Assembly: GCA_964016885.1 (NCBI GenBank)
Contig: OZ024743.1
Coordinates: forward strand, 48,484,001-48,548,000
DNA length: 64,000 nt
Reading direction: 5' to 3'
Source of the DNA: Eledone cirrhosa
Lineage: Eukaryota
The translations under genes were made by a program, and so were the position numbers. Of this stretch, positions 1-63,132 are shown piece by piece (within the stretch, counting starts at the first letter, position 1; each line of letters starts with the position of its first letter). The notes under the pieces are model-generated. The model was not told where the DNA came from. It worked only from the letters and a program-made list of their open reading frames with translations, and did not search any database.

Positions 1-1205
1 AACGGGGTGGTGTGGATCGGGTGGGGGTGGTGGTGGTGGGACGGGGTGTATTTTGTTAGAGATGCCTACTGGCTGGAGTAGGTTTTACTATATATTTAGG
101 TAAGGCGGGTCTTCTCTGTTACTGAGTACCGCCAAAGGTCTCGGTCCAGTGACATTGTCTTGGAGAGGTGTAAGTGTGTGATGTCGGAGTTTATCAGCTC
201 GTCCCAGGTTTTTCTAGGTCTGCCTATTCCGTGACTACCGTCTATCTTTATTACCCTGCACTTTGTTATACAGCTATCGACTTTCATGCGCATCACGTGT
301 CCATACCAACGTAGCCTTCTCTCGAGTAAACAACATCTGATCCCTCTTATCTCTAATTTTTTCCTTAGTTCGTTTATGCTTTGCCGTTCACGTATATTAC
401 TGTTACACATCCAGCGGAGCATGCAAGCTTCGTTCCTCTCTAGTCTGCGTATATCCTCTGCACACAATGCCCAGGTCTCGCTGCCATGCAGCATTGCTGT
501 TCGTATGCAGGCATCGTACAACCTGCCTTTCATTTTTAGTGAGAACCCTTTAGCAGCTAATAGTGGTATAAGCTCTCTGAACTTTTTCCAACCAGTTCTG
601 ACTCTAGCTACAGTACTTTCAGAGCACCCTCCCCCACTGCTGATTTTATCGCCCAGGTAACGGAAGCTGTCCACTATTTCTATAGAACCCTCTGCGCAAT
701 TGAAAGAGCTAGTAGTTTGTGGGCACTTGCTGCTACTTATTGCACCAGAGCACCGGCCACATGTAAAATCTATGTTCTTAGTTAGCTTACCTGTGATCCC
801 ACTACATCTTTTATGCACCCATACTTTGCATTTAGGACATAAAATGGAGTTTCTACCTACGCCTTTCCTACACACCGAGCACGACCATTTCCCAGAAGGG
901 ACCGCCGCCTTGTTTTCTTTCCTACAAACTAGTACTTTGGTCTTAGCCAGGTTAATTTTAAGTCCTTTTGACTCTAGGCCGTGCTTCCATGTTTGGAATT
1001 TCTTCTCTAGCTCGGCCATTGATTCCGCTATGAGTGTCAGGTCGTCTGCGTATAGGAGTTCCCATGGGCAGCCTGTCTTGAACTCCTCTGTTATAGCCTG
1101 AAGGGCAATAATAAATAGTAGTGGGCTGAGAACAGAGCCCTGATGGATGCCAACTTTTACGCTAAACTCTTCACTATATTCGTTGTTAATTCTAACCTTG
1201 CTGAC

Positions 1206-1206
<1 letters not shown>
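1..1206 (-). mobile_element. RTE-clade LINE, PHD-in-RT family subfamily 1, 5'-truncated (copy A)
   Basis: ORF 96..1019 and upstream sequence give RT motifs (HQGSVLSPLLF, LLYADD, FRYLG, RRLRWYGHV, GRPRKTW). 5' end abuts (TA)n; 3' UTR runs off the window start. Confidence 0.93.
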
Positions 1207-1254
<48 letters not shown>

Positions 1255-1552: not shown

Positions 1553-2437
1553 ATAACTTTGAATAACTTTGAAATGTTTTGGCCAGTATTGGCCCAGGCC
1601 ATGTCTAACTTAATAGCACCACCTGGCGAAGTCTTTCAATTCAGGATTTGGGCACCATGGCCCATTCGAGAAGAGAATTACTGTTTGCGGAGACATATCC
1701 GGGTGTGGGTGGTTTGTCCGGGATTACTTGGAGGAATTTGTCCAAAGACTTCTTGAATTTTGTGTGGTCAGTTTCTGTTTTGACGTGTCCTGGTGTGATG
1801 TTGAAGAGAGCAGGGCTGATTGAGGTGAAATAATTGTGCCGTATTGTTGTTATGAGTTGCGATTTAGATTTTTGAATGGGACGGATAGCACGGGGCCCAA
1901 GCCTTGGGTGTATCTTGAAGGCGATGCCAACATCATTTGGGCAGTGATGATGGAACATTTTCCACATCATGCAGATAATATAACGCTCACGGCGACGTTG
2001 GAGTGAGTAAAGTTTCAGGTTTTCTAATCGACCCCAGTAGTCAAGGTCTGACATGCCATCTATCTTTTTCGTGATTGCCCTTTGAGGAGCCTCAAGTTTC
2101 ATGATACTTTGTTTCGTGTGGGGAGACCACAGTGGACAACAGTATTCAAGGTGTGGTCGGGCAAAAGTAGAGAAGAGAAGGATAATGGTGCGGGAATCTC
2201 TCGACTGGAAGGTTCTGAGGATCCAGGAACACATTCTGCAGGCCATGTCAACTTTGCTGCTTATATGCGTGGTCCAGCTTATGTTGCTGTCCACGGTTAC
2301 TCCCAAGTCTCTGATGTTGTTAGATGCCACGAGAGTTTCCCCGGAGGGAAGGGAGTACGGGAGTTTCAGAGCATCCTCTTTTCCAAAGTGGATCAGTTCG
2401 AATTTGTCTTCGTTCAGTAACATGTTGTTCTTTTCTG
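1553..2437 (-). mobile_element. CR1/L2-group LINE, 3' fragment
   Basis: C-terminal part of ORF 1641..2648: [43 protein letters not shown]. Short tandem 3' tail near 1553-1573. The ORF's N-terminal YI run is microsatellite. Confidence 0.85.
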
Positions 2438-2458
2438 TATATATATATACACATATAA

Positions 2459-2489
<31 letters not shown>

Positions 2490-2698
2490 AATATATATAT
2501 ATATACACATATAAATATATATATATACATATACATATATAAATATATATATATACATATACATATATAAATATATATATATACATATACATATATAAAT
2601 ATATACATATAAATATATATATATACATACATATATAAATATATACATTATATATATATAAATATAAATATATATATTAATATATATATATATATATA
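2437..2698. repeat. compound (TA)n/(TACA) microsatellite
   Basis: Directly visible. Confidence 0.95.
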
Positions 2699-2871
2699 AT
2701 AACTAGAAATTGATTAACATGTATATAAATAAATATAAACAGTAATAATCACAGGAGATAATTTTTACAAGCGTGTAACCACGCATGGCTAGTAGGTAAC
2801 AAATAAATAAAGTTAACTAGAACTTCAAAAATAGATACCTTTTAATGATTAATCTTCCCTGCGCACGCCGA

Positions 2872-24000: not shown

Positions 24001-25317
24001 CCTCTTCTGCAGGCTCCTTTCTTAATGTTAGTCCTTTTGACACTGAGAAATTTTCTCTCTTGTACACATCAACTATGTGGTCTTTCCATCACCAGCCACT
24101 TTACAGTATGGATTGGGTGTATTTTATCATGTCAATGACACTAGAGAGGTTATCTGCTAAAACTAAAATATCCCATCAATTCTGTATCAGATTTTCTGCA
24201 GATACTGCTATTCTAGGCAGGTTACCCTCACTGTAATGCAACTTCCATCTCTGTCGTTTAATTATGACAAAAGCCTTTTTGTCTATTGTTGGGGTTTTTT
24301 CTGGAATCTCAACTTCCTAGAGGGGTTGCTTTCACTATAGCTGAGAAGCCCCATCTCCATGATGTAGAAATGGGTGTCAGCTTCTGTGAATGAAGATTGT
24401 TTTCACAATGTAGGACTTTTAGTTAATAAGTTGCTCTACAACTGGGCATAATTATTGTCTCCATTATGTAGGTAGAATGTAGTAGCTTACTAGATTGAGG
24501 TGACTAGGAGTGAGATCTTCTTAATATAGAGATGGTGGGTATTTATTTACCCAGAAAACTTATGCTAAACTAATGACAGCCAAGCTTAGATTATCCAAGT
24601 CAGTTATAGGACAGTTGATATACCAGTGTAGGTTGTCAAGATGTGGGAAAGCTATGCTCTAGAACCGTATTTTACATATAGCAGTGTAGGTTGTCAAGAG
24701 CAGCGGAGATGTGGGAAAGCTATGCTCTGGAACCATATTTTACAGCTATTGATCTACCAGACACTCTGTGTCAATCAATGTTTATTGATTATCCTGATCA
24801 TTCATATTGTAGGTATATGTATGTATACATATATATACATGTGTATATCTATGTTTGTATACGTACAACCCCCCCCCCCCCATATATATATATATATTTT
24901 TTTTTCCCATAAGAGATGATGACGTGAATAGACCTGTTTTTCTCTAGAAATTTTCTTTTTTTCTTCCACTGCCCAGTCTCCTCTATCTTTCTATTCTTTA
25001 ACTTCTCCTATTTTCTGAAGGACTAGCTTCCAAAACTTTAAGACTCTTTTCCTACTATATCAAGCGTTAAACTAATAATATATTCCTCCATTGTACTGTG
25101 TTTGATTTCTGTTTACCTTTTGCATGCATGCACGTATACACACATACAACTCACTGACACAGGAGGGTTTTTACACCTCCAAACCCTAACAACCCTCTCC
25201 TGTCCACATCCCTCTCCCTCTTGCACCTCCCATGTCTCAACAATCCACTCATGCCTAAACACCTTGCCCTCTCACACACACACCTAGATCTACCTGCACC
25301 CTACCCAAGTCCTCAGC

Positions 25318-25707
25318 CCACATTGTAAAGTGGTTGTGTAGGTGTCACAACAAAAAGAACCCAGTCCACACTGTAAAGTGGTCTTGTAGGTGTCATGACA
25401 AAAAGCACCCAGTCCAGACTGTAAAATGGTCTTGTAGGTGTCATGACAAAAAGCACCCAATCCACACTGTAAAGTGGTCTTGTAGGTGTCATGACAAAAA
25501 GCACCCAATCCACACTGTAAAGTGGTCTTGTAGGTGTCATGACAAAAAGCACCCAGTCCAGACTGTAAAGTGGTCTTGTAGGTGTCATGACAAAAAGCAC
25601 CCAATCCACACTATAAAGTGGTCTTGTAGGTGTTATGACAAAAAGCACCCAGTCCACACTGTAAAGTGGTCATGTAGGTGTTATGACAAAAAGCACCCAG
25701 TCCACAC
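25318..25707 (+). repeat. 48-bp minisatellite (~8 copies) inside an RTE-type 3' tail
   Basis: Unit CCACACTGTAAAGTGGTCTTGTAGGTGTCATGACAAAAAGCACCCAGT, followed by CCCATGCTAGCATGGAAAATGGACATTAAACAA(TGA)n. Confidence 0.92.
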
Positions 25708-27019
25708 CAGCTGCAGAAACCAATCCAAAACCAGTCTTGTGTGAGCAAGTCATCACCATCTGTTCTGGTTTGTCTCACAACGAGGCAACTCGTCTAACCC
25801 ATGCTAGCATGGAAAATGGACATTAAACAATGATGATGATGTGTGTTTATTCTTTTACTAGTTTCAGTCATTAGACTGCAGCCATGCTGGGGTGATGCAT
25901 CTAAAATATGAGAGGAGGGTTACTATTATTTATACTACAATATAACCAATGGAAATCAGAAGCATGATAAAAAAAAATAATGAAATCATTATGCTAAGAT
26001 GACTTTGTCTGTGTTATGGCTCCTTATCTCCTTCATTCAACCTGATTCTAATTAAGCAGTCTTGTACAATCATGTTGCCAACAGCTGACTAAATGTGAAT
26101 TGTACTTGATATGAACTCATAAACCATCAGGTGGAATCCAGTATTTTGCTTACTTTTGTAGTACACTATTATTTTCTCTACTGTTTAACCCTTTTGATAC
26201 CAAATTGTCAGAAACTGCACTTGGTTCAATGATATACAAATATTTGTTTTAAATTATTTATATTTATCTAAAAAGTTTCCATCATAATTTTATGTAAGAA
26301 CCCATATTAACCTTTCATTACCATATTTTTAATGGAATACACTGTATTTCAATTAATTAGTGAAAAACTTGGAAGAATTTACTATAATTATTATTTCACT
26401 ATTAAGCTAGTTTTCATATCATCACGTAGCAAAAGGTTTATAGATTATGTATTGTGTAAGTGTCATGACAAAAAGCACCCAGACAACACTGTAAAGTGGT
26501 TGGTGTTAGGAAGGGCATCCAGCCATAGAAACCAAGCCCAAACCAGTTCTGTGTGAGCGAATCACGATCCCCTGACCTGATCCCTCACAAAGGGACAGCC
26601 CGACCTACTCATGCTAGCGTGACAGATGGATGTTAAATGATGATGATGATGATGTTAGAAGGTTTAATTTAGATAAGAATCCTTTAAAAGAGGTGGTCTT
26701 GTTTCATATAACTAGAGCTGTTTTAGCCAGGTTGGTATCAAAAGGATTGTTATATTCAAAACACCAGCTTAATAATGAGAAAGTTATATTACTTTCCTTT
26801 CAATTTCTTAAAAATCATTTGAAATACTTAGAAATATAATAAAATGTAGTAGCCATAAATTTTGATGGAAAGGTTGTAGTTGATTGAATTGACAATGGCA
26901 GTTATTTTATCAACCTTAGGGAGTGGTGTGGAAAGCATGAAACACTGCTGAGATTTTAATCTAAACTATAAAAAAACATAAATACTGTTAGATATCCTAT
27001 TGGGCTCCCTACTATTTCT

Positions 27020-27900
27020 GCTGCTGCCATCATCTCTCCTGTTCATTATTTACATGAACAAGATTGACATGCACAGCTGGGTTGGAAGTGGTGTCATGAC
27101 TGGTGGGTTTAAAATCAGTCGGCTGGAATTTGCAAACTACATAGCGTTATTTAACTTAACAGAAAATGATCTTCGACTTACATTTGATAGGTTTGATGCC
27201 GAGTGCTGCATGGCTGGGATGAAAATCAGTGCTGCGAAAACTAAGACACTCGTCTTTTCGAGGAATCCTGCGCAGTGCACTCTACATGTGAATGGAGGTC
27301 CACTGAAGCAGGTAGAGAAGTTCAAGTATCTTGGGGTCGTGTTCATGAGTGATGGAAGGCAGGAGGCTGAATTAAGTGCAAGAATTGCAGGAGCTGGTGC
27401 AGTAATGCGCTAGCTTCAGCAATCAGAAAAAGGGATGTAGGCGTAAACACCAGATTTGGTATTTATGCGAACCCTTACCTATAGTCATGAATCTTGGGTA
27501 ACAACCAAAAGAATACGATTGTGATTACAAGTGGCCGAAATGGGATTCTTCCGAATGGTCTTTGGAATAACGTTACTCGATAAAGTGTGTAGCTCGGAGA
27601 TCAGTCACTCCAGGTAGAGCCACTATTTCTCCAAATTGTGAGATTACAACTCCAATACTATGGGTATGTGGCTAGAATGTCTCAGGAAAGAATCACTGGA
27701 CAGATTTTACAGGCAAAAACCAACCAGCAGGAGACCCAGAGGTAAACCTGGGCAAGATGGTTGATAACATCCATGAGCTTGGCTGGTCTCACTTGGGGAT
27801 CCAGCCGGGTCAGTTGGAGATGCTTGCTTCTGATAGGACCTACTGGAAGGAGTGTTTGATGACTCTGTCCCCACAACCCTCTCAGGAATAAGTGGGTGAA
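27020..27900 (+). mobile_element. RTE-clade LINE family 2 (no PHD insert), decayed 3' part
   Basis: SSLLFIIYM...LEFANY...GMKISAAKTK...VEKFKYLG in ORF 27000..27413. Related fragments at ~31210-31400 and ~47815-48290. Confidence 0.85.
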
Positions 27901-32184: not shown

Positions 32185-33247
32185 CTAACTAAGAACATAG
32201 ATTTTACATGTGGCTGGTGCTCTGGTGCAATAAGTAGCAGCAAGTGCCCACAAAATACTAGCTCTTTCAATTGCGCAGAGGGTTCTATAGAAATAGTGGA
32301 CAGCTTCCGTTACCTGGGTGACAAAATCAGCAGTGGGGGAGGGTGCTCTGAAAGTACAGTAGCTAGAGTCAGAACTGGATGGAAAAAGTTCAGAGAGCTT
32401 ATACCACTATTAGCCGCTAAAGGGTTCTCCCTAAAAATGAAAGGCAGGTTGTATGATGCCTGCATACGAACAGCAATGTTGCATGGCAGTGAGACCTGGG
32501 CATTGTGTGCAGAGGATATACGCAGACTAGAGAGGAACGAAGCTTGCATGCTCCGCTGGATGTGTAATAGTAATATACGTGAACGGCAAAGCATAAACGA
32601 ACTAAGGAAAAAATTAGAAATAAGAGGGATCAGATGTTGTTTACTCGAGAGAAGGCTACGTTGGTATGGTCACGTGATGCGCATGAAAGACGACGGCTGT
32701 ATAACAAAGTGCAGGGCAATAAAGATAGACAGTAGCCACGGAGTAGGCAGACCCAGAAAAACCTGGGACGACCTGATAAATTCCGACCTCACACACTTAC
32801 ACCTCTCCAAGACAATGTCACTGGACCGAGATCTTTGGCGGTACTCAGTAATAGAGAAGACCCGCCTTACCTAAGTACTAAGTAAAACCTACTACAGTCA
32901 GTAGGCATATCTAACAAAATACACGCCGTCCCACCACCCCATCCACACCGCCCCTTTCAATGTAAAGTTATGTTGGTGCCACAACATCCAGGCCGAAACA
33001 AATGAGATTGTGTAGGTGTCACGACAAAAAAAACACAGTCCACGCTGTAATGTGGCCGTGTAGGCAACACGGTAAAAACCTCCCAGCCCCACACTGTAAA
33101 TGTGGTTGGTGTTAGGAAGGGCATCCAGCTGTAGAAAATCCGCCAGACAGTCCTATGCGAGCAAGACAACCACTCTTGCCTCAAGTGGGAAAATTCCCGT
33201 CCAAACCCATGCAAGCGTGGAACATGGACGTTAAACGATGATGATGA

Positions 33248-33250
<3 letters not shown>
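32185..33250 (+). mobile_element. RTE PHD-family subfamily 1, 5'-truncated (copy B)
   Basis: ORF 32158..32874 is nearly identical to copies A and D. Full 3' UTR ending TTAAAC(GAT)n. Confidence 0.93.
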
Positions 33251-33280
<30 letters not shown>

Positions 33281-33406: not shown

Positions 33407-36118
33407 CGCAGAGGTATCCACAGTAAGTTGTGGGGTCTATTCTGCATGAAGAACTCGATGTAATGCATATGTTGAAAATGTTGTAGGTTATGATAAATCT
33501 CGAAAAATAATAAAACATTAAAGAGGAAAACAGAGTCATGATATAACTTAAAACAATGAAATAAAAAATCAAATCATTAGAGATATACTTCACTGCTTTA
33601 CGATCATTTCTAGATGATGATAATACAGTGTAGCTATACTCCGTTATTGATCTATGTAAGGTTAGTTATAAAAATATCAGATAAAGAGAATATTTACTTA
33701 CATGCATATCACCAGCTGTTTTCAAAAGCAATAATAATTTTATTCAGAATTAGTAGTATGTTAGTATCATGTCCTTATTTGGATGTAGTTGAAGAACTAA
33801 CCAATCAAATTGTTTTTTTCATATGGTGTTAAGATGAAAAGTAATACACTTTAGTTGAGGTCATGACCCTTTGAAAGGAATGGTTGAATGGTGCTAATAG
33901 TAGAATTAGCATAAAAATCTATTAGGAGGAAAGGGATTGTCAAACTGATAGTTGAATGTATCTGGTATAGTGAAGTTAAAAAGAATGTCAAAATAAATGG
34001 TGATTAGTGTTGTATTGAGTTTTTAGGTGAATATAAATTAAGGTTATGGTTATACACATATATATACATATATACACATACATAAATATATATATACACA
34101 CACACACACATAAATATATTTCCATATCATACATAGATATATATTTATTCATGCAATTACCGGTGGTTGTGTACCTTGTTGCCTTTAGTCATTAACGCAT
34201 AAACCTAAGGAAGCTAAAACATTAAAAGGTAAAAACATAAGCATGAATGCATATAATTAGGGGAAAGGGGTACTAATAATTGTTACTCTATATAGAAGAA
34301 TTATAGTGAGTTGCTATTTAGAATATTTAATTAGGTTTATAGTATTTAAATGTTCTTCGTATACAGTGATTACAAACTATGATCAGTTCCTGCCTTTTAT
34401 TTAATAAATCGTCCTTAGATTTAGTAATTTCCAAGATCTCCCTTGAACATAATCTGCATTCCCTCCTGTTCCCAAGATATGGAGTTCTTTGTAGAATGGT
34501 GTTCCACGATAACTTAAAATCTATTTTTTTCTTTTTATAATTATTTACCGCTTCAGCTAAAGATGTGGTGTTAGCTAGTTTAGTATTGTTGAAACTACTA
34601 GAGTGTGCGTAAAATCTTTTCTTAAATGTGTTTGATGTAGATCCTATATATGTCTTGTTGGAGTCTGTAGTAGACACAGTGCATTTATATATTACATTAT
34701 TAATCAAACAGTTGCCATTTAAGGGGAAAATGCTTCTATTTCTGCAATTACAGCCATTCGTAAGATGGTTGTTGGGGGTGCCTATACTATTCTCATTAAT
34801 CCTTGAGCTATTCCTATTGTAATTAATGATAGCAGGAGAATGAAGGTTGCTTTGTGGGTGGTTTGGTGCTAGGGTTGTATTGTGATTTTTGTGTTCTGTT
34901 GTTTTTGTGTTGATGATTTGGGTGGTTGTGTTTTCTAGGTTGAAGGATTGTATTATTTGCCTTTTTAAAAGGTGCAGTCCTATTTAAATTATGTTGTGGT
35001 GGTGTAGTCATATTATTTTAAAGTTTATAAATGTTGTAGTTACTTATTTTTTGCTGGAGATTGCTTGATGTAGAGTATGAGAATTTAACAGTATATTTGT
35101 TAAATATTTGGTGGAAAATGTTGATGTAGAATTTCAAAGAATTTTTTGGGGATTTGTCCAATAGTTTGCAGGTTGAAGGGTGTGTTGTAGCATGTTATGT
35201 TTCTTTTGTGGTTTTTAGTTAAGTTCTTATTATTGTGTTGTGTTCTAGAAGAATTCCTATGGTTAGTATCCTTATTTGTGGAATTTGGTAAATTACCGTG
35301 GTTGTATTTGATGTTATTTTTGGGTAGATTATGAGATTTTGAGTGCTTGGTATTCATATGTGGGTTGATAACATTGGTCATAGATCGTGTAGTAATAATT
35401 GTTGTGGTTTTTCAGTTGTTTGGTGTAATAGGAATAACCACTTTAGGTATTTGTTTCAATGGTATTTTTTGGTGTTTGTAGTTTTTGCTAGGTTTTATGT
35501 TTTGGTCCATAGTAGTGTTGGGAATATATGAGATTTTTTCTTTATATCCACTTCTAGTTAAGGCCTCGTTGTAGAAGGGTGCATTATTATAAAATATATC
35601 TTCAATGGAAGATAATTTAGAAAGTCTAAGAGATATGTTATATACTAAGTTCTTGAGTATAGAGCCAGGGTGGTTAGATCGTGAATGTACATAATGTAGA
35701 TTCTGGTTAGGTTTGTGGTAAGGTTGATAAGTATTCGTAGAGAGGTCTAAGGTAACGTCAAGGAAATTAGCTACTTTTAAAGTGGTTTCAAAAGTGATGC
35801 TAAGGCTGTAATAGTCCTTGAGGAATTTTCTAATTTGTTTTTTGTTTGTCTCTATATTGGAATTGCTAAGATTGTTAGATAACAATGGACAATCATCCCG
35901 ATGAAGACCAGCTTTGAGGTGGGAAAAAGAGTCATGAATGTTATAGAGGAGAAATAGTCCAACAAGGTCTGTAACTTGAGCTGAGTCCATGGATCCCATT
36001 GTAATATCGAATAAGTTGTTATATGTGTTTCTTGTTCAGTATTCTTCTTGGAAGTTTAGTAAGGTTTTTCTAGCATGAGTTATGATGTTGATTTCCTCAG
36101 TAGATAAATCCGATTTAT
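33407..36118 (-). mobile_element. Penelope-like retroelement (RT + C-terminal GIY-YIG endonuclease), decayed and 5'-truncated
   Basis: ORF 35412..35999: MGS..SAQVTDLVGL, HRDD, NFLDVTLDL, YVHSRSNHP. ORF 34327..34707: VIYKC...TYIGST..FKKRF.AH...CRLC...LLNKRQEL..CNH. Confidence 0.88.
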
Positions 36119-36309
36119 GTATATATATATATAGGTTTGTGTGTATATATATGTATATATATATATATAGGTTTGTGTGTGTATATATATATATATATAT
36201 ATAGGTTTCTGTGTTTATATATATAGGTTTGTGTGTGTATATATATATATAGGTTTGTATGTGTATATATATATATATAGGTTTGTGTGTATGTATATAT
36301 ATATAGGTT

Positions 36310-36359
<50 letters not shown>

Positions 36360-36480
36360 TTTGTGTGTGTGTATATATATATATTATATATTATGAAATA
36401 CTGTTGGCTTCACGCTCACAATAATTTCTATACTTTCATTTATATATATATATAGGTTTGTGTGTGTATATATATGGGTT

Positions 36481-36981: not shown

Positions 36982-39365
36982 GGCAGGTTTTCTATGGCTG
37001 GATGCCCTTTCTAACACTAACAACATTTACAATGTGGACTGAATGTTCTGTGACACCAACATAACTTTACAGAGAAAGGGTAGTGTGGTTGGAAGTGGAA
37101 GGATGTGGTAGTGGGATGGGGTGTATATTTGTTTACGGGGTGCCTACTGACTGTAGGTTTAACTTTGTATGTAAGGGAAGGCGGGTCTTCTGTATTACTG
37201 CGTAGCACCAAAGGTCTCAATCCAGTGATATTCTCTTAGAGAATTGTAAGTGTGTAAGGTCAGGTTTTATCATGTCGTCCCACGTTTTTCTGGGTCTACC
37301 TACTCCATAGCTTCCATCAATTTTGATCGCCCTGCACTTTTTTTATACAGCTGTCATCTTTCATGCGCATCACGTGACCATACCAACGTAGTCTTCTCTT
37401 AAGCAAACAGCTAACAGTGATATTAGCTCTCTGAACTTTTTCCATCCCGTTCTAACTCTGGCTACTGTACTTTCAGAGCACCACCCCCACCCCCCTCCAC
37501 TGCTGACTTTGTCACCCAGCTAATGGAAAGTGTCTACTATTTCTATAAAACAAACTGGGCAGTTGGAGCTAGTATTCAGTGGGCACTTGTTACTTACTGC
37601 ACCCGAGCATCGGCCACATATACAATCTACATTCTTAGATAGCTTACCTGTGATCCCACTACATCTTTTATGTACCCATAGTTTGCATTGGAGCATAGAA
37701 TGGAATTTCTACCTACTCCTTTCCTACACACTGAGCATGGCTATTTCCCAGAGGGCACCTGTGCCCTATTCTCCTTTCTACATACTAGAACTTTGGTCTT
37801 AGACAAGTTAACTTTAAGGCCTTTTGATTCTAGGTCATGATTCCATGTTTGGAATTTCTTCTCTAGTTCAGCCATAGAGTAAGCTATGAGGGTTAGATCA
37901 TCTGCATATAGAAGTTCCGTTGGGCAGCCAGTCTTAAACTCTTCTGTTATATCCTGTAGGGCAATAATAGATGGGGGGGGGGGGGGGGGGCTAAGGACAG
38001 AGCCTTGATGAACACCTACTTTTATGCTAAACTCTTCACTATATTCATTGTTAATTCTAACCTTGCTGACTGTTCCTCTACACATGGCTTTTATAGCTCT
38101 CACAAGCCACTCATCTACTCCTAGTTTTCTAAGAGCCCACCAGATAATGGAGCGGGAGAGTCTGTCAAAGGCTTTCTCCAAGTTAACAAAAGTTAAGTAG
38201 AGGGGTTTACTTTTAGCTAGGTACTTCTCCTGTAGTTGCCGTACAAGGAAGAGAGCATCCGTGATACTTTTACCTGGCACAAATCCAAACTGCATTTCAT
38301 CTAGATCAATTCGGTCTATAATCAGTTGTGCAATAACTCTTTGTGACCTTCATGACCTGGTCAACTAACTTAATGCCTCTATAGTTTTCTCTATCTAGAG
38401 CGTCTTTTTTGCCCTTGTAGCAGTTAACGATGATGCTGCTACGCCACCATTCTGGACACATTTATCTCCAACAACATCCTGATTTGCATTGACACACTGC
38501 CTTGCAATGTGGAACACCACACGCCTCTAATCTTCCCATCGCAGAACATTGGCAAACCTCCTACTCTCAGCCTTCCTGCGTGCTAAGTACATCTGACGTC
38601 TAGCTTCTCTCTTAGCGGCTGTATATCCTTCTCTACTCCCACCCTTTTTTCAAGCCTTCTATGCTAGTTTTTGTCTCTAATGGCCCTATCTACTGTGCTG
38701 TTCCACCACCAGGTTACTCTGTCTGGTTGGAGCTCTGCTCCAGTCACAAATTTCATCAGTAGCCTGCAGTAAGTTGTCACGTAAGAAATTCCAGTTATTA
38801 TCTATGTCATACGGCTCTAAATCGTCTTCTTTTTCATCATACACATCTTGAAGGGCCTTCCTAAATTTGTATTTTAGTGAAAGGTCTTTTAGCTTCCAGA
38901 CCTTTCTTCTCCACACCTTCCTGTATGTCTCTTGCTTACTGAGATATCACTAACGACTAACCTATGCTGTGGGGTACATTCTTCCCCAGGGTATGCCTTG
39001 GTATTTGACACCATCTGCCTATCCCGCTGCCTAACTAGTAAGAAGTCAATCTGGCTTATGTGCTCACCTGATTTGTAGGTTGTAAGGTGGTTGGCAGGTT
39101 TCTGAAGATAGTGTTGCAAATAGTCAGTGTACTTGCATCACAAAATTCAAGAAGTCTCACTCCTTCTTCATTTCTTGAACCGTGCCCACCATGTACTCCA
39201 GTGTAACCATCCTGGAGCTGTCCAACATGACCATTGAAGTCCCCTGCTAGCATAACGATGTCTCCGTTCTCTGTCATTGCGGCTGTTTGTAAAAGTTGCT
39301 TGTAAAAGCAGTCTTTCTCTTCTTTGCCTAGACCTGCTTGGGGAGCATAGGCAGAGATGATTGTC
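36982..39365 (-). mobile_element. RTE PHD-family LINE, older copy with endonuclease and RT remnants (copy C)
   Basis: AGDFNGHVG and SQIDFLL..PQHRLV (AP endonuclease); QFGF, LEKAFD and LLYADD (RT). Frameshifts and internal deletions. Confidence 0.9.
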
Positions 39366-42068: not shown

Positions 42069-44860
42069 TTAATGTCAATCACAAGAGTGTACTGGGTGCA
42101 TTTTATCATGGCTGGAGCCCCAAAGAAATTGTCAAGTCCTCAACAAGATAAAGGGTTCTCTTTACCTTTCATTGCCTTTGTTCATTCATCAACCACTTTA
42201 CAAGGGGTTGAAAATTCTTGATTATTTTCAAATAGGATAACAAAAGGGTTAAATTTTTCTTCTGGGTGGTGGTTGAATTTAAAATCCCTGCTACAATTGT
42301 TCATTTAACCACAGAGTGAATGGTCTTAGTTTTCTAACCTTAGTGTAATCCCACTTTTGTGATATCAGAATTTAAATTTAATTATAAAACATGCCACAGA
42401 TGTACACAACATATTCTGGCATTGACACATTTTAGAGTATAGAAGAATAGAAATAAAAACAGTAACTCTTTTAAATATAATCAACATTTCATAAACATTT
42501 CAGTTGATTTGTTGTAGGAGTATTGCATTTATTATTCAAAATAATCTGACCTTATTGTTTGAAGGTCACATTTATTTTAAAAGGACATGAATGTTGTCTA
42601 TGAACTTGTAATGAATAAATTATGTAAACATGATTATCTATTTTAATGTATGTGTGTGTGTCTGTATATATATATGTGTGCACGTGGACATGGAAATACT
42701 TGGTTTGGTACCGAAGTGAGAGACTCTTAGTCCTTATTAGGACATCATTCTAGGAGACAGTAAACTCTGATGTAAATAAAACCTATGGCTCAACCGCATC
42801 CAATGATATTGACCTGTTCTTCTTTTTCAAAGAGTGGAATTGGACCAGTACAATTTTTTTTTTTTCATTTAAAAAAGCTTCAAGCATAGGCATCACTTGA
42901 TCTAAACATCTTACATGTGTTGCACGAGCATGTCTGGCCATAGCCAAACACTTTTTCTGTACCATTCATGTATGGGAGAGGGATCAAGTGATGGTAATTC
43001 TCAAAATCAAGATGCAGCCATCACACACACACACGCGTTAGTTTAGGTACATATATATATATATATCACTGTTGTTTTAATGTCTGCTCTCCCTGTTAGC
43101 AAGAGTTAAGTCTACATATACTAAGTCAGTACTGAAGTGAAGCTACTGATCTCCCAGTCAGGCCAGGGATCTGCATCTCTCTTATTTACAGTCTCGCATT
43201 CTACCAAGTGCATAGAGGAGGGTGTCATGTGTTTGACACAATCAGGGCTCCTCCCAACTCTTTGTTTGGCAAGATTTCTATTATTGTATTCCCTTCCTAC
43301 CACCAACTAATTTAGAGTGTGAACTGGGTGTGTTTATCATGCAGATCACCAACACTAGGGAGATTGTCATGTCCTTAACACCCTTTTTTTGGCAAGCTTT
43401 CTATGGCCGGATGCCCTTCCTATCATCAGCCACTTTACAGCGTGTACTTGTGTGTTTATTGTGTAGATCAGAAACACTAGGGAGGCTGTCATGTCCTTGA
43501 CACGACTGAAGCGTCCTCCCAACGCTTTTAGAAAACTATCCCCAGCTGGATGCCCTTCCTCTCACCAACCACTTCATGGGGGCAGCAGCTTGGAATGGGG
43601 GGGGGGGGGGGGGGGGTAGTGTTGTTGGTTGTTGGTTGTGATGTTAGTGAGTGCTAGTGGAAGGGGGCACATGGGGGTAGGTCAAGTCACATTGTATACT
43701 GCAGTTCAGGCCTTCTTCCGCACCACATGTTTTTACACTAAATGTCTTAAAATATATAACTCAAACACATATTTATATTATTGTTGACTCTGGTTTGCTT
43801 TATATATCAAGTGCTGGTTGCTGTATTCATATTCAACTGGGAAACTGCAAGTAGATAGCAAAGTTGTTCTCCTACATTAAAGTTTGGAGGAATACTTTAC
43901 AAGGATTCTTGTAATATGTAATTGGAAAATACAAAAACAGTTAAAGTTTAATGTTGAAGTAATTTCAATGTTGGAATATATTTAATATAAACGCAGGGTT
44001 AAGGAGTTTGATTTACAACTATGTGGTTTCAGGTTCCTCTCTTTCTATGTTGGACTTTTGCTATTGCCCCAGGTTGACTTACGTCAGTGAAATTTGGTAA
44101 TGAGAAACTGCAGAACCCCGTTATATGTGTGTTTACATCAGTGTCTATGTCCTGTAACATAGCGGTTCAACAAAAAAGATTAATAAAATGAATATCTGAC
44201 TTGAAAGAATAAGTATTTTGGTAAATATGATCAACTAAATCTCTTTAAGACAGTGCTCCAGCATGACTGCAGTCTAAAAACTGAAATTAGTAAAAAGAAA
44301 AAAAGAGAATTACTATTGTTTATCTCTGTAACATTACCATATTTAGGGTTGTGCAGGATATTGTGATCATCATTATCATTGTTTAATGTCTACTTTTCCA
44401 AACATGCATGGGTTAGACAGGTTGTCATGTTATGAGACAAGTGAGGTCCAGAGATCACATCATGCTCAAATGGCTGGATGTCCTTTGTAACACTAACCAC
44501 AATACAGTGTGGACTTGGTCCTTTTTATTGTGTCACTGAAATGACCACCTTACAAGGTGAAGTGGTTGCGTCACCAACACAACCACCTTACAGGCTGGAC
44601 TGGGTCCTTTTTTTCATGTAACCAGCAGGACCACCTTACAGTATGCTGTTTTTAGAAATTGTTCTGTGGCTGGACTATATTATTGAGAGATTTGTGTTTT
44701 TTGGAATAATTCTTTGTGGAGCAACTATTTCTTATGTCTATTCATATTCACATGGAATTACAATTCATTATGTTCCATAGTGACTAAAAGAAACTAGATA
44801 ATATAATTCTCTTTGATGAATGCAGATGCATAATTGGTATTTTTTTTTTTTCATTCAGTT

Positions 44861-45444
44861 TTTGGCACTCCAAAGAATGGCAAGTTTCTTTGGTACTCCA
44901 AAGAATGGCAAGTTTCTTTGGTGTTCCATAGAATGGCAAGTTTCTTTGGTGTTCCATAGAATGGCAAGTTTCTTTGGTGTTCCATAGAATGGCAAGTTTC
45001 TTTGGTGTTCCATAGAATGGCAAGTTTCTTTGGTATTCCATAGAATGGCAAGTTTCTTTGGTATTCCATAGAATGGCAAGTTTCTTTGGTGTTCCATAGA
45101 ATGGCAAATTTCTTTGGTGTTCCATAGAATGGCAAGTTTCTTTGGTATTCCATAGAATGGCAAGTTTCTTTGGTGTTCCATAGAATGGCAAGTTTCTTTG
45201 GTGTTCCATAGAATGGCAAGTTTCTTTGGTGTTCCATAGAATGGCAAGTTTCTTTGGTATTTCATAGAATGGCAAGTTTCTTTGGTGTTCCATAGAATGG
45301 CAAGTTTCTTTGGTGTTCCACAGAATGGCAAGTTTCTTTGGTGTTCCACAGAATGGCAAGTTTCTTTGTTGTTCCATAGAATGGCAAGTTGCTTTGGTGT
45401 TCCATAGAATGGCAAGTTGCTTTGGTGTTCCATAGAATGGCAAG
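44861..45444. repeat. 28-bp minisatellite, ~21 copies
   Basis: Unit CATAGAATGGCAAGTTTCTTTGGTGTTC, head-to-tail with no spacers. Confidence 0.97.
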
Positions 45445-45490
45445 CATTAGAATGTTAATAGTTTAAATTTCATTATTTCATTTTATGAAA

Positions 45491-50346: not shown

Positions 50347-52370
50347 ATCATCACCATCATCATTATCATCGTTTAACGTCCATGTTCCATGCTTGCATGG
50401 GTTTGGACGGGAGTTTTCCCACTTGAGGCAAGAGTGGTTGTCTTGCTCGCATAGGACTGTCTGACGGGTTTTCTACAGCTGGATGCCCTTCCTAACACCA
50501 ACCACATTTACAGTGTGGGACTGGGAGGTTTTTACCGTGTTGCCTACACGGCCACATTACAGCGTGGACTGTGTGTTTTTTTGTCGTGACACCTACACGA
50601 TCTCATTTGTTTCGGCCTGGATGTTGTGGCACCAACATAACTTTACATTGAAAGGGGCGGTGTGGATGGGACGGGGGCGGTGGGGGGTGTATTTTGTTAG
50701 AGATGCCTACTGACTGTAGTAGGTTTTACTTTGTATTTAGGTAAGGCGGGTCTTCTCTATTACTGAGTACCGCCAAAGATCTCGGTCCAGTGACATTGTC
50801 TTGGAGAGGTGTAAGTGTGTGAGGTCGGAATTTATCAGGTCGTCCCAGGTTTTTCTGGGTCTGCCTACTCCGTGGCTACCGTCTATCTTTATTGCCCTGC
50901 ACTTTTTTATACAGCTGTCGTCTTTCATGCGCATCACGTGACCATACCAACGTAGCCTTCTCTCGAGTAAACAACATCTGATCCCTCTTATTTCTAATTT
51001 TTCCCTTAGTTCGTTTATGCTTTGCCGTTCGCGTACATTACTATTACACATCCAGCGGAGCATGCAAGCTTCGTTCCTCTCTAGTCTGCGTATATCCTCT
51101 GCACACAATGCCCAGGTCTCACTGCCATGCAACATTGCTGTTCGTATGCAGGCATCATACAGCCTGCCTTTCATTTTTAGGGAGAACCCTTTAGCGGCTA
51201 ATAGTGGTATAAGCTCTCTGAACTTTTTCCATCCAGTTCTGACTCTAGCTACTGTACTTTCAGAGCACCCTCCCCCACTGCTGATTTTGTCACCCAGGTA
51301 ACGGAAGCTGTCCACTATTTCTATAGAACCCTCTGCACAATTGAAAGAGCTAGTATTTTGTGGGCACTTGCTACTACTTATTGCACCAGAGCACCGGCCA
51401 CATGTAAAATCTGTGTTCTTAGTTAGCTTACCTGTGATCCCACTACATCTTTTATGCACCCATATTTTGCATTTGGGACATAAAATGGAGTTTCTACCTA
51501 CGCCTTTTCTACACACTGAGCATGGCCATTTCCCGGAAGGGACCAGCGCCTTATTTTCTTTCCTACAAACTAGAATTTTAGTCTTAGCCAGGTTAATTTT
51601 AAGGCCTTTTGATTCTAGGCGATGCTTCCATGTTTGGAATTTCTTCTTTAGCTCGGCCATTGATTCAGCTATGAGCGTTAGATCATCTGCGTATAGGAGT
51701 TCCCATGGGCAGCCGGTCTTGAACTCCACTGTTATAGCCTGAAGGGCAATAATAAATAGTAGGGGGCTAAGAACAGAGCCCTGATGAACACCAACTTTTA
51801 CGCTAAACTCTTCACTATATTCGTTGTTAATTCTAACCTTGCTGACTGTTTCTTTATACATGGCTTGTATAGCTCTCACAAGCCATTCATCAACACCTAG
51901 TTTTCTAAGAGCCCACCAGATAATGGAACGGGGAACTCTGTCGAAGGCTTTCTCTAAGTCGACAAAAGCTAAGTATAGGTGTTTACTTTTAGCTAGGTAC
52001 TTCTCCTGTAGTTGTCGTACAATGAAAAGAGCGTCTGTGGTACTTTTGCCTGATACAAACCCGAACTGCATTTCATCTAGATCAATTCTCTCTCTGATTA
52101 GTTGCGCTATTACTTTTTCCGTGACCTTCATGACCTGGTCGATTAATTTAATGCCTCTATAGTTACTCCTATCTAGGGCGTCTCCTTTACCCTTGTAGCA
52201 GTTATGATGATGCTGCTACGCCAGTCCTTCGGAACAACCCCATTCTGTATGACTTGGTTTACTATCCGGGTGACCATGGTGTGTCCTACCGTTCCAGAGG
52301 CTTTCAGCATCTCAGCAACTATTTCCGAAGGCCCAGCTGCCTTACCCGTCTTCATATCTTTGATTGCCTT
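50347..52370 (-). mobile_element. RTE PHD-family subfamily 1, longest young copy (copy D)
   Basis: Open 464-aa ORF 50737..52131 with complete RT core (QFGF, DLEKAFD, QGSVLSP, YADD), PHD insert, 3' UTR and (GAT)n tail. Confidence 0.95.
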
Positions 52371-52379
52371 TGTATATAT

Positions 52380-53878
52380 ATCATCATCATCATCATCATC
52401 ACCGTTTTACGTCCGTTCTTCCACGCTAGCATGGGTTAGACGGGTTGTCCTGTTGTGGGCAGTGTCTGGTCGGCTGACCATGCCTTGCTCATACAGGAAC
52501 TGATCTGGCTTGATTTCTACAGCTGGATGCCCTTCCTAACACCAACCTCATTTACAGTGAGTGCTGGGTGCTTTTTCGTGGCGCCTACACGTCCACTTTA
52601 CAGTGTGGGCTGGGTGCTTTTTTGCCGTTGCACCTCCACGACCACCTTGCGGTGGGGTGGGGGGGGGGCATATTGTTTATATGCTTCAGCATGTACCCAT
52701 GGGAGGTCGGGTACCCTGTATTACTGCGTGACGCCAGAAGTCACGGTCGTGTGTCATTGACTTTGAGAGGTGTAGTTGGGTAAGGTCGGCTTTTATCACC
52801 TCATCCCAAGTCATCTTGGGTCTCCCCACTCCGCGGTTTCCATCAACTTCTAGTGCTCTGCACCTTTTTATGCAGCTGTCATCCTTCATACGCATCACAT
52901 GTCCATACCAGCGTAACCGCCTCTCCTGCACGCAGCATTTGATTCCTCTTATGCTCAGTCTCTCTCTCAATTCATTTATGCTTTGTCGTTCACGTATATT
53001 ACTGTTACACATCCATCGGAGCATGCAGGCTTCGTTTCTCTCTAATCTACGTAAGTCTTCCACCTTCAGCGCCCAGGTCTCACTACCATGCAACATCGCT
53101 GTTCGGATACACGCATCATACAGTCTGCCTTTCATTCTGAGGGAGAAGCCTTTTGCAGCTAGCAGTGGTAGTAGTTCCCTAAACTTCTTCCATCCCGTTC
53201 TTACCCTAGTTATTGTACTTTCTGAGCACCCACCTCCGTTGCTAATTCGGTCACCCAGGTAGCAGAAGCTGTCTACTGTTTCTACAGGGCCCTCCCAGAG
53301 ATTGGTGGTACTTGTTTCCTGTGGCTGTTTGCTTGCTGTTTCAGCACAGCTGCTGCATGTGAATCCTACATTCTTAATTAAGCTTCCTGAGATCCCGCTA
53401 CATCTCTTGTGTACCCATTGTTTGCATTTGGGGCAAAGAATGGAGTTCCTACCTACACCTTTCCTACATACTGAGCAAGGCCATTTCCCTGAGGGGATCT
53501 GGGTTCTGTTTTCTCGTCTACTTATAAGGACCTTAGTCTTTGTCATGTTGACTTTGAGGCCCTTTCTCTCTAGTCCCTGCTTCCAGGTTTGGAATTTATT
53601 CTCTAGTTCTACCATAGATTCAGCTATGAGTGCGAGGTCATCAGCATACAGGAGTTCCCATGGGCATCCGGTCTTAAACTCCTCCGTTATTGCCTGCAGG
53701 ACTATGATGAACAGGAGAGGGCTAAGAACAGAGCCCTGGTGGACCCCAACCTGTACGCTAAATTCCTCGCTATACTCATTGCCAATCCTAACTTTGCTGA
53801 CTGCTCCCCTATACATGGCTTGTACCGCTTTCACAAGCCATTCATCTACTCCTAGTTTTCTAAGAGCCCACCAGATTA
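52380..53878 (-). mobile_element. RTE PHD-family subfamily 2 (copy E)
   Basis: 400-aa ORF 52686..53888, collinear with but clearly diverged from copy D. Own 3' UTR and (GAT)n tail, directly in tandem with D. Confidence 0.95.
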
Positions 53879-56516
53879 TACAAATCATTTCCTAGTTTAT
53901 TCAGTTCCAGTGACACACAGATATACAAGTATATATAACATTGAACCAGAGGTGGTTTCGGGAGATTTGGTATCAAAAGACTTGAAAGTGGTTGGGATAT
54001 ACTAATTTGTGCAATTATGAACAAACAGATTATCAAAAAATATTTCTAAAGATACAGTATGGAAGTCTTGGATGTATTATGACTGCTTTGTAAAAGAAAG
54101 TTACACAAAATATTATTTTCCATGTAGTTACTAATATTTCCCAAAAGACAAACAGAATGTAATTTGTTGCTCTGCTCATACACTTCAACATATTTTCAAA
54201 CACACATAAAGTATTTTGCAATTAACACTGCCTGTGATTTTGAATAATTTTGAAAATAATCAAGAATTTGAAGGTATTTAGTAATAAAACGTTCTCATTA
54301 TTAAGCTGGCATTTGGAACATAGCTTAACAAAGGTTATTACATAAAATTATGATTTTAAAATAAACAGCTTTGTATTGAATTAAAGGCAGTTTCAGGCAG
54401 TTTGATATCAAGAGGGTTAAGGAAAGACACTGTTCATGACGTTTGTATCATTTGGAAAATAATCAACAATTTGGTATGGTTTAGTAATATACCAAACTTT
54501 CTCATTATTAAGTTTGCATTTGAACATAACCCCACACAAGTTCTTACAATGATGATGATGATGATGCATGGTTTTAAGATAAATATGAACACCTTAAAAT
54601 AAGCAGCTTTGTATTGTAGAACCAGAGGTGGTTTCAGACGATTTAGTATCAAAAGTGTTAAACTGAGTAAACAATAACCAGACTTCTGTTTGTTTTTTTT
54701 TCTAAATTAAAACTTAAAGTAGCTATTTGATCATAGTAATTATTTGTTTCTGTTTTGCAATAATTATATATATTTCTTGTGCACTAATACAGAATTTTTA
54801 TTTGCCTAAATAAATTGCCTACGCAATGATCAATAAATCTAGCTCCACTTCAATACCATTAGCATAGTTTTATTGATGTTTCTTTATTAAATCTTGGTTG
54901 AAACATTTTTGCAAGCACACTTGTTCGTAATATTCTATAAAAACTGCTGCCAATATGCTAGCTGGTAAACTCTCAACTAGATTATTTTATTATTATCAAT
55001 ACTATTATTGCAGTTTGGAACTACAACTGTGGACTTTTATATACCTTTGATATTTAAAGAGCAAGTGATATGCAGTTCTGTATTTTTGTCTTTCTGCTTT
55101 AAGTTAAATCTAATTTGAAAACCACAGTAGACATGCATATGTTATTTTATGGAAATTTTAAATATTCTTAATTGAATTCTAAGCTAGTTGTTAACAAAGT
55201 GACAAGCTTTTATTGTCAAGACAGCAACAAGAATTCATACAAGTTAATGTGTTTATGAGTATTATGTACACCCTCTCCTCTTTTCCTAACATTCTCTCCC
55301 CTAGAATCAAATAGAATCTTTTACACATCTTCACTATACCACTGACCCATTTTCTCTTGGTTCATGTAATATATATATATATATACATATTCATATTCTT
55401 GTATTGTTTTGTGTATATAGGAAGACATTATCCAGTGTATTAATTCCTGTTCCTAGGAACTAGCAAAGTAATTCAAGATTGACTGTCTATGCAAATTCCT
55501 GAATATCATAGAAAAGGAGTCCATGCAAACTCTTTTATATCAATGACATAATTCTCTAAACTGAATCAATAAAACAATTGGAGGAAAAGTGTTTCAGTGT
55601 TGATATTTTCACTGCTACTTCAAAAACATTGTTTGATAGGGAGTTATTAAACAAGTACTGATTTGTTGCTCACTTCTAGCACCAACATATCCAATTGTAT
55701 CAATCATCTTTGAAAGCTAATGAAGAGAAGCCATTCATACCATTGTTCATTATTTGGTCAATTATTTATTTCAAATTCACTTAACCTCTCTAGTGTTGGT
55801 GTCTCTATAAAGTGGTAGTGCTTACACTACAATAAAAAGCACCCGATGTACTCTGTAAAGTGATAGGCATTAGGAAGGGCATTTAGCTATAGAAACCATG
55901 CCAAAATACGGAACATAAGGATAAGACGTGTCTCCTTGACTCAGCCAGTCTTAGACTGACAACTTCTGCAACCCATGCTAGTGTGGAAAACAAAACATCA
56001 AATGATGATATCTGTCAAATATAGTTTTATTTTGGACAAATTCCATCCATATGTCTCAGAGGATATTGTGACAAGCTTTAATTGTGTCTTAGTGTTATAA
56101 ATATTATGATCTCGATCACCAAGAAAATAATATATTTTTGGGTGACATTGATTTTGTTCTTCTTTGACCATCGAAGCATACAACTTTGGCACTTCTTCAA
56201 CAGAACTGGCAAAGGATTCACTGATAGATTAAGCAGCAGTATAGTACAGAGAAGCTGTTGCTGCTTCAGATATTTCCATCAATAACCTAATTCTATTTCT
56301 GACTAGGAACAGGCACTTACTTTATTATATCTAGCCACAGTCACTGGGCGTTGACATCACTCGCACGCACGCACGACATGCGATGCGTGCGCACTCACAT
56401 ACACAAATTATGCTAGGTTTTTGCTTTAAAATTTAAACTTCATTCCTTCTCTTCTTTCTCCATACAGAATGAGTGAAAAAAAAAACAAAGAACAAAGTAG
56501 CAATGTTATGTATATA

Positions 56517-57437
56517 TCATCATCATCACTGTTTAACATCCATTTTCCCACCGTAGCATGGGTTAGGTGAGTAGTCTTGTTGTGAGCAATGCCAGGTCAG
56601 GTGACAATGTCTTGGTCACACAGAACTATTTCTGGCTTGGTTTCTACAGCTGGATGCCCTTCCTAACGCCAACCTCATTTACAATGAATACTGGGCACTT
56701 TTTGTCGTGACACTTATATGACCACTTTACAGTGTGGACTGGGTACTTTTTGTCGTGACACTTATATGACCACTTTACAGTGTGGACTGGGTACTTTTTG
56801 TCGTGACACTTATATGACCACTTTACAGTGTGTACTGGGTGGTTTTTGTCATGACACCTACATGACCACTTTACAGTGTGGGCTGGGTGATTTTTGTCGT
56901 GTCACCTACATGACCACTTTACAGTGTGTACTGGTGGTTTTTGTTGTGTTGCCATCACGACCACTTTGCAGTGTGGGCTGGAGGCTTCACTGGATGTATA
57001 CTTCAGCCTGTCCTCATGGAAGTGGGTGCAGTGGGGTGGTTCATACTATATATATGCTTCAGCTTCAGTCTGTGCCTATGGGCAGTTGGGTCTTCTGTAT
57101 TACTGTGTAACGCCAAAGATCTCAGTCCTGTGTCATCGCCCTTTGTGAGGTGCAATTGATTATGGTCAGCTTTTATCACCTCATCTCAAGTGTTCCTTTG
57201 TCTCCACACTCCACGGATTCCATCGACTTTGAGCGCTCTGCCACACTCCACGGATTCCATCGACTTTGAGCGCTCTGCCACGCTCCACGGATTCCATCGA
57301 CTTTGAGCGCTCTGCACCTTTTTATACAGCTGTCATCCTTCATATGCATCACATGTCCATAGCAACGCAATCTCCTCTCCTGCACACTGCATCTGACTCC
57401 TCTTATGCCTAGTTTCTCTCTCAGTTCATTTATGCTT
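56517..57437 (-). mobile_element. RTE subfamily-2-like 3' fragment (copy G) with internal tandem expansions
   Basis: QERRLRCYGHVMHMKDDSCIKRCR; 48-bp repeats at ~56690-56980; 37-bp unit x3 at 57204-57314; (GAT)n tail. Confidence 0.85.
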
Positions 57438-62248: not shown

Positions 62249-63132
62249 GAAAAAGTTCAGAGAGCTTATACCACTATTAGCTGCTAAAGGGTTCTCCCTA
62301 AAAATGAAAGGCAGGTTGTACGATGCCTGCATACGAACAGCAATGCTGCATGGCAGTGAGACCTGGGCGTTGTGTGCAGAGGATATACGCAGACTAGAGA
62401 GGAATGAAGCTTGCATGCTCCGCTGGATGTGTAACAGTAATATACGTGAACGGCAAAGCATAAACGAACTAAGGAAAAAATTAGAGATAAGAGGGATCAG
62501 ATGTTGTTTACTCGAGAGAAGGCTACGTTGGTATGGACACGTGATGCGCATGAAAGTCGATAGCTGTATAACAAAGTGCATGGCAATAAAGATAGACGGT
62601 AGTCACGGAATAGGCAGACCTAGAAAAACCTGGGACGAGCTGATAAACTCCGACATCACACACTTACACCTCTCCAAGACAATGTCACTGGACCGAGACC
62701 TTTGGCGGTACTCAGTAACAGAGAAGACCCGCCTTACCTAAATATATAGTAAAACCTACTCCAGCCAGTAGGCATCTCTAACAAAATACACTCCGTCCCA
62801 CCACCCCCACCCCCACCCCATCCACACCACCCCGTTCTATGTAAAGTTATGTTGGTGCCGCGCCATCCAGGCCGAAACAAATGAGATCGTGTAGGTGTCA
62901 CGACAAAAAACACACAGTCCACGCTGTAATGTGGCCGTGTAGGCAACACGGTAAAAACCTCCCAGACCCACACTGTAAATGTGGTTGGTGTTAGGAAGGG
63001 CATCCAACTGTAGAAAACCTGCCAGACAGTCCTATGCGAGCAAGACAATCACTCTTGCCTCAAGTGGGACTACCCCCGTCCAAACCCATGCAAGCGTGGA
63101 ACACGGACGTTAAACGTTGATGATGATGATGA
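62249..63132 (+). mobile_element. RTE PHD-family subfamily 1, 5'-truncated (copy I)
   Basis: ORF 62247..62741 shares diagnostic residues with copy A (KVDSC, HGIG, DELINSDIT, SVTEK). 3' UTR and (GAT)n tail. Confidence 0.93.

Follow-up and report, generated by a model that had tools for sequence, protein, structure and literature searches.

The DNA analyzed here, hereafter the window, is a stretch of 64,000 nt from Eledone cirrhosa (assembly GCA_964016885.1, contig OZ024743.1, positions 48,484,001 to 48,548,000 of the forward strand). On its minus strand, positions 50347-52370 hold a copy of an RTE LINE that is both 5'-truncated and frameshifted, and that consists of an ORF remnant, a 3' UTR of several hundred bases, and a (GAT)n tail at 50347-50370. 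The remnant is open from stop to stop over 50737-52215 (minus strand) and encodes the LINE reverse transcriptase (RT) and thumb; the initial annotation had the boundary at 50737 right, but the minus-strand frame extends to 52215 and not 52131. Its translation, P0001, contains the catalytic YADD of the RT (51682-51693). A C4HC3 PHD finger at 51391-51522, residues 231-274 of P0001, lies within the RT palm, in an insert that is bounded upstream by RT motif 6 (51577-51606) and downstream by the FxYLG of motif 7 (51292-51306), all on the minus strand and all located in the translation. The motif numbers 6 and 7 follow the usage in PMC10499050. Copies of the same PHD-bearing RTE with the whole ORF are present at other sites in the genome.

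Further copies of the family lie in the window. One copy belongs to a diverged subfamily (52372-53891, minus strand; 77% nucleotide identity to the copy at locus L034) and has its PHD at 53346-53477, and another, which is cut by the window edge (1-1220, minus strand), has its PHD at 750-881. A degraded copy (37036-38832, minus strand; 67-85% identity) is interrupted by a stop just before the PHD, a 5'-truncated one (32185-33251, plus strand) has its start inside the final portion of the PHD, and a third (62249-63132, plus strand) retains only the 3' portion downstream of the PHD. At 52352-52390, the 5' break of the 50347-52370 copy adjoins the (GAT)n tail of the diverged copy together with a short TA run; the two subfamily copies are thus stacked head to tail. 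An RTE family without the PHD, with a 25-aa spacer and a (GAA)n tail, is found at 26982-27413 (plus strand) and was used as a control; by eye it appears to be Rex3-like. Also in the window are the 3' part of a CR1-like LINE (1641-2702, minus strand), whose 5' end adjoins a (TA)n run, and fragments flanked by (TA)n at 34327-36383 (minus strand) that include an RT and a GIY-YIG-type segment and that, judging by these motifs, look Penelope-like. Tandem arrays occupy 25259-25744, 44784-45454, and 56608-57110, the first and last of which resemble the 3' UTR unit of the RTE family at ~70-77%.

The identity of the finger was examined from its sequence pattern, by profile, and by predicted fold. Read again from the minus-strand frame, the ligand pattern C-x2-C-x10-C-x2-C-x4-H-x2-C-x14-C-x2-C (CSVC, CPKC, H, C, CGRC) falls exactly on window positions 51522-51391, with W251 two residues ahead of His253 and F269 two ahead of the last CxxC, all as initially annotated. 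The translations also returned the same figures that had been given for an insert inside the RT: the spacer from KTK to FxYLG is 90 aa in the PHD family versus 25 aa in the RTE family at 26982-27413. The Pfam PHD model PF00628 scores 26.3 bits with the whole ORF and 33.7 bits with the finger alone (cut-off 24), and it is also above the cut-off in the copies at 99-1259 and 52689-53888; the proposed PHD identity therefore passes the curated threshold in three window copies. The C1 and RING Pfam models were both below their own cut-offs on the finger. In AF2 models the finger is folded, and in the full model it is confident (pLDDT about 80-90), with low values for the linkers (58 and 61). The best PHD matches by profile are the PHDs of Pygo1/2 (E 2.7e-7), and the best PDB fold match is likewise a Pygopus PHD (probability 1.00, E 0.011, rmsd 1.0 Å over 37 columns). 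Over 152 relatives, the aromatic residue before the last Cys pair is F in 75% and Y in 24%.

The PHD-bearing family is a high-copy RTE-clade LINE. Its product P0003 is a single 1064-aa ORF with an AP endonuclease (APE) and an RT; no ORF1 was seen upstream in three 5' regions, and no C-terminal zinc finger in the whole-ORF copies. The local copy P0002 is 47% identical to a Branchiostoma floridae RefSeq protein (P0562), which agrees by eye, through the insert, with BfRTE-a02, a member of the published RTE phylogeny. The RT is 32-34% identical to that of a catfish element similar to OlRTE-a03 on visual comparison. Through these pairwise identities the RT appears, indirectly, to group with named RTE elements. 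The 47% match, the APE and RT ORF, and a simple-repeat 3' end, in the form of the (GAT)3-12 tails that end the family's copies, bear out the assignment to RTE made at the outset. In L034 the 3' UTR is about 500 bases; a very short 3' UTR is typical, not defining, of RTE, and that of RTE-2_OV from Octopus vulgaris is about 600, yet this element is classed as RTE by phylogeny (PMC9115989). Like the family described here, RTE-2_OV is an RTE LINE of an octopus, has one ORF, and ends 3' in a microsatellite, but it is 1109 aa long with a terminal C2H2 finger, whereas the family described here is about 1064 aa with an internal PHD and no C2H2 (PMC9115989). Identity of the two was ruled out by this difference in ORF length and by the absent terminal C2H2.

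Target-site duplications of 6-12 bp were sought at 39 loci, yielding one plausible case of 10 bp (L029); numerous junctions fall within microsatellites or outside the sequence examined. About 900 bases ahead of the ORF, L039 and L040 contain a tandem array of roughly 135-base monomers. The 5' region of the L039/L040 subfamily is unlike that of L034, and both converge on a CCAAT-containing block, which suggests 5' UTR swapping between subfamilies.

Between the two subfamilies in the window the finger is 83% identical and the flanking linkers just 47-50%, with 8/8 ligands in both; the initial observation that the ligands were retained while the linker drifted therefore holds. The corresponding omega values are 0.085 for the finger, 0.077 for RT motifs 3-6, and 0.054 for motif 7 plus thumb; in the linkers, synonymous sites are saturated. 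Purifying selection, which had been proposed from the window, is thus supported by a finger value close to that of the RT core. Conservation of the ligands also extends well outside the window. A PHD-containing query listed 120 relatives at 41-62% identity, and an exhaustive search added 150 rows; both flanking motifs were present in 189 of these 270 proteins, 183 with a long spacer, five with 25 aa, and one with 35 aa. After an 80% identity filter, and with the query included, all eight ligands are found in 144 of 152 relatives. A query containing the finger might favor carriers, and a finger-free one (RT residues 520-750) served as a control for this bias. Among the best 120 of its 1226 matches, 114 have all ligands, five have degenerate, frameshifted, or cut inserts, and in one a deletion takes out the end of motif 6 as well; no intact short spacer was seen among these 120.

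The named carrier hosts are O. bimaculoides, the catfish Neoarius graeffei, Branchiostoma floridae, and a lucinid-symbiont metagenome bin, and a Nematostella vectensis sequence adds Cnidaria to the range (PMC2887409 Additional file 2). Carrier proteins of the P0498 cluster are filed under the bacterial symbiont metagenome bin, on contigs of 3.8-4.8 kb, and are probably bivalve host DNA. Two public gene models, P0004 and P0015, fuse the PHD-bearing RTE to LETM1-like (O. bimaculoides) and to slc22a21 (a catfish), respectively; these host-gene fusions are probably annotation artefacts. In an unrooted tree of the RT core built without the insert, 75 carriers, which are 33-72% identical mutually, are separated from five PHD-less rows, all from one catfish family, with an SH-aLRT of 100. 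Judged from these sequences, the finger is a real, conserved, and lineage-defining feature that is fixed in one RTE lineage.

The place of the finger in the RT has a parallel in R2 elements. The 6a insertion of R2Bm, which likewise separates RT motifs 6 and 7, recognizes the center of the upstream target motif, and deletion of its residues 672-677 blocks nicking (PMC10499050); vertebrate R2s use 6a likewise (PMC11601368). A profile of the RTE family aligns to R2Bm as far as residue 670, a point shortly after motif 6 and immediately ahead of the finger, and because 6a comprises residues 672-677 the finger occupies the same loop. By analogy, this loop in an APE-type element may also face upstream target DNA. 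The analogy is positional only: the insert here and the 6a loop of R2Bm, R2Tg, and R2Pm are both lineage-specific insertions between motifs 6 and 7, but a short basic loop of an RLE element with a fixed target site contrasts with a zinc finger of 44 residues, flanked by linkers, in an APE element that is dispersed, and the two have no sequence homology.

The comparison with Pygo bears more directly on what the finger might bind. The Pygo cage for K4me2 has walls of W366, Y341, and D352 and a base of V350 and A356; E360 and I357 are also required for binding, which mutation of E360 abolishes (PMC2726290). Four of the five cage positions are kept in the finger, again with coordinates on the minus strand. 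W229 (51526-51528) is at the Y341 wall position and is W/Y/F in 87% of the 152 relatives; V238 (51499-51501; 96%) and S242 (51487-51489; Ser in 96%) correspond to V350 and A356 at the base; and W251 (51460-51462; 97%) corresponds to W366, the pocket divider. I243, at the position of I357 in the T3 pocket, is I/V in 95%. The acidic lip formed by D352 has no counterpart by alignment, the loop being two residues shorter with a conserved Asn, and the position of the E360 anchor is non-acidic in the 152 relatives (T/S/N/G/V). The finger is therefore not filed as a member of the Pygo family, from which it also differs in that loop 1 is acidic in Pygo and basic here, and loop 2 is shorter here.

Of the 16 PHD matches in this genome that are presumed to be host ones, only one has the Trp two residues before the His; this Trp is thus not needed for the fold, and that it has been retained suggests a conserved ligand pocket. 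The net charge of the finger is positive in 152/152 relatives (+1 to +12, median +7), with conserved basic positions K228, K236, K254, and K/R255. The 16 presumed host matches, some of which are partial exons, have a median charge of about -2.5 and a range of -9 to +5. The suggestion of a histone reader in the initial annotation can accordingly be kept for the conserved Pygo-type cage with its pocket-dividing Trp, whereas the lack of D352 and E360 equivalents and the uniformly positive charge stand against it. The H3 tail is itself basic, and the PHD of RAG2 recognizes H3K4me3 although it lacks the acidic contact to R2 that is usual. At L133-L137 (G000 C25 at about 19-24 Mb, C14, C15, and C3) there is another retroelement, whose own, different PHD precedes the RT and is without the pocket Trp; many near-identical copies are clustered on C25, and by its motifs the element looks CRE/R2-superfamily-like. 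Binding of nucleic acid by PHDs has been described: the BAZ1A PHD binds DNA through basic residues (PMC5636791), and the PHDs of VEL proteins bind polyanions and not H3, their pocket architecture having been lost (PMC9640981).

Insertion sites were examined through the 3' junctions. Tails were found at 34 of 40 loci, 33 of them distinct, and 16 of these 33 junctions have (AT)3 or (TA)3 within the first 12 flanking bases, against a background of 7.5% of 199,760 positions in 20 arbitrary 10-kb stretches. Beside the older PHD-less (GAA)n family the figure is 2/16. A simpler account of the (TA)n bias would be microhomology, with the (GAT)n tail annealing to AT repeats; since the tail could anneal in this way, and since unrelated elements in the window also adjoin (TA)n, the bias is not counted as evidence for the finger. 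By hand count, dispersal appears to follow chromosome length roughly, about 49 of 81 matches lying on the four largest contigs, which hold ~54% of the bases.

The insert is not specific to this genome; carrier sequences have been in print since 2010. Additional file 2 of PMC2887409 includes BfRTE-a02 (Branchiostoma floridae) and NvRTE-a01 (Nematostella vectensis), in both of which motifs 6 and 7 are separated by the C4HC3 insert seen here, within the same kind of single APE and RT ORF; the insert is absent from 17 of the 19 complete entries examined in that file, and the main text of the paper has no mention of PHD, zinc, or cysteine. No description of a PHD inside an RTE RT was found in the literature outside Repbase, with few subscription journals covered, and the accessible portion of PMC3905857 has nothing further on the subject. 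PF00628 is precomputed on many public protein records of the family. The carrier sequences are therefore public, and the PHD feature has apparently gone unremarked. Repbase also holds amphioxus RTE families. PHD fingers of CR1/L2 LINEs were reportedly described by Kapitonov and Jurka in 2003. These PHDs are Pygo-like and have been proposed to act in chromatin targeting, but they are found in ORF1 or at the N-terminus of the ORF, before the endonuclease, and are present in some subgroups and missing from others (PMC4120745), unlike the PHD described here, which lies within the palm of the polymerase and has become fixed in its RTE lineage. The same study calls ORF2 highly constrained, and its authors knew of no functional study of such a PHD (PMC4120745).

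At about even odds (a probability of roughly 0.5), we interpret the finger as a tethered chromatin grip that combines a methyl-lysine pocket, likely for H3K4me, with a basic, DNA-facing surface. The finger, flexibly tethered at a loop that may face the target, would grip chromatin at the insertion site: its Pygopus-type pocket is predicted to accommodate a methylated lysine, with histone H3K4me as the likeliest candidate, and its basic surface would contact DNA. Such binding might raise the efficiency of, or access for, target-primed reverse transcription (TPRT), or shift its placement. RTEs without a PHD are common, and on that ground the finger would serve site choice or access as an add-on and have no part in catalysis. 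In APE-type LINEs, the endonuclease is generally held responsible for site choice. Pairing of a chromatin reader with a transposon-derived enzyme that inserts or cuts DNA is known from the RAG2 PHD and from chromodomain integrases, where the chemistry is that of a DDE recombinase or integrase and the reader is outside the catalytic domain. In favor of a chromatin grip are the best matches to Pygo by both profile and fold, the four retained cage positions, the ligands kept in 114 of the best 120 matches to the finger-free query, the position at the R2 6a loop, and an omega near that of the RT core; against it are the missing acidic E360/D352 equivalents, the positive charge throughout, the roughly length-proportional dispersal of the copies, and a (TA)n bias that does not point to chromatin marks. 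The more specific proposal, that an H3K4-methyl reader built into the palm of an ancient RTE lineage gates or aims TPRT in cis, is offered more tentatively.

The finger could instead be a nucleic-acid clamp and nothing more, holding either upstream target DNA, as a zinc-finger counterpart of R2's 6a loop, or RNA from the 3' end of the element; the aromatic pocket would then stack a base, and the finger would substitute for the DNA-binding domains that RTEs lack. The positive charge and the four conserved basic residues would suit such a clamp, as would an insert position equal to that of the R2 6a loop, the lack of an ORF1 upstream and of a C-terminal zinc finger in the copies inspected, and the 16/33 junctions at (TA)n; BAZ1A and BRD1 PHD2 and the VEL PHDs provide precedents (PMC5636791, PMC9640981). 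A clamp alone, however, leaves unexplained why the exact methyl-lysine cage positions are conserved. VEL lost its pocket architecture, whereas the finger keeps the residues, and the (TA)n bias would fit annealing of the (GAT)n tail and is seen beside unrelated window elements. We regard the clamp as the main rival, less likely than the chromatin grip. That the pocket takes a non-histone partner, either a host factor that carries methylation or part of the RT itself, and in this way regulates nuclear entry, stability, or timing, is improbable. A pocket conserved without the usual acidic H3-anchoring residues would be in keeping with such a partner, and Pygo PHDs do bind a protein cofactor as well, on their rear face (PMC2726290), but conservation across cnidarians, molluscs, and chordates would demand a near-invariant ligand, for which histones or nucleic acid seem better suited. 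There is very little to recommend the finger as a tolerated passenger, captured once from another retroelement and kept because in-frame deletion is rare or damages the palm: its omega equals that of the RT core, and its non-ligand residues are 90-97% conserved among families down to 33% RT-core identity. PHD-less RTEs nevertheless attain high copy number, and the ORF1 PHDs of CR1/L2 elements also match Pygo best, making a transposon donor plausible (PMC4120745).

With a 44-residue domain, a defined pocket, a single ORF, intact copies, and PHD-less sister lineages, this lineage is a clean test case for the chromatin-grip interpretation. If an H3K4-methyl reader does act in cis from the palm, the lineage, whose hosts range from sea anemones to fishes, would be an example of a LINE polymerase that carries its own epigenetic reader, and the loop between motifs 6 and 7 would offer non-LTR RTs a socket into which targeting modules can be fitted repeatedly. 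If the finger reads chromatin at all, a non-LTR RT would be shown to tolerate a folded targeting domain in its 6-7 loop, a tolerance of interest for retrotransposon-based gene insertion tools, and the finding would be relevant to the way in which a highly abundant repeat has shaped the genome.
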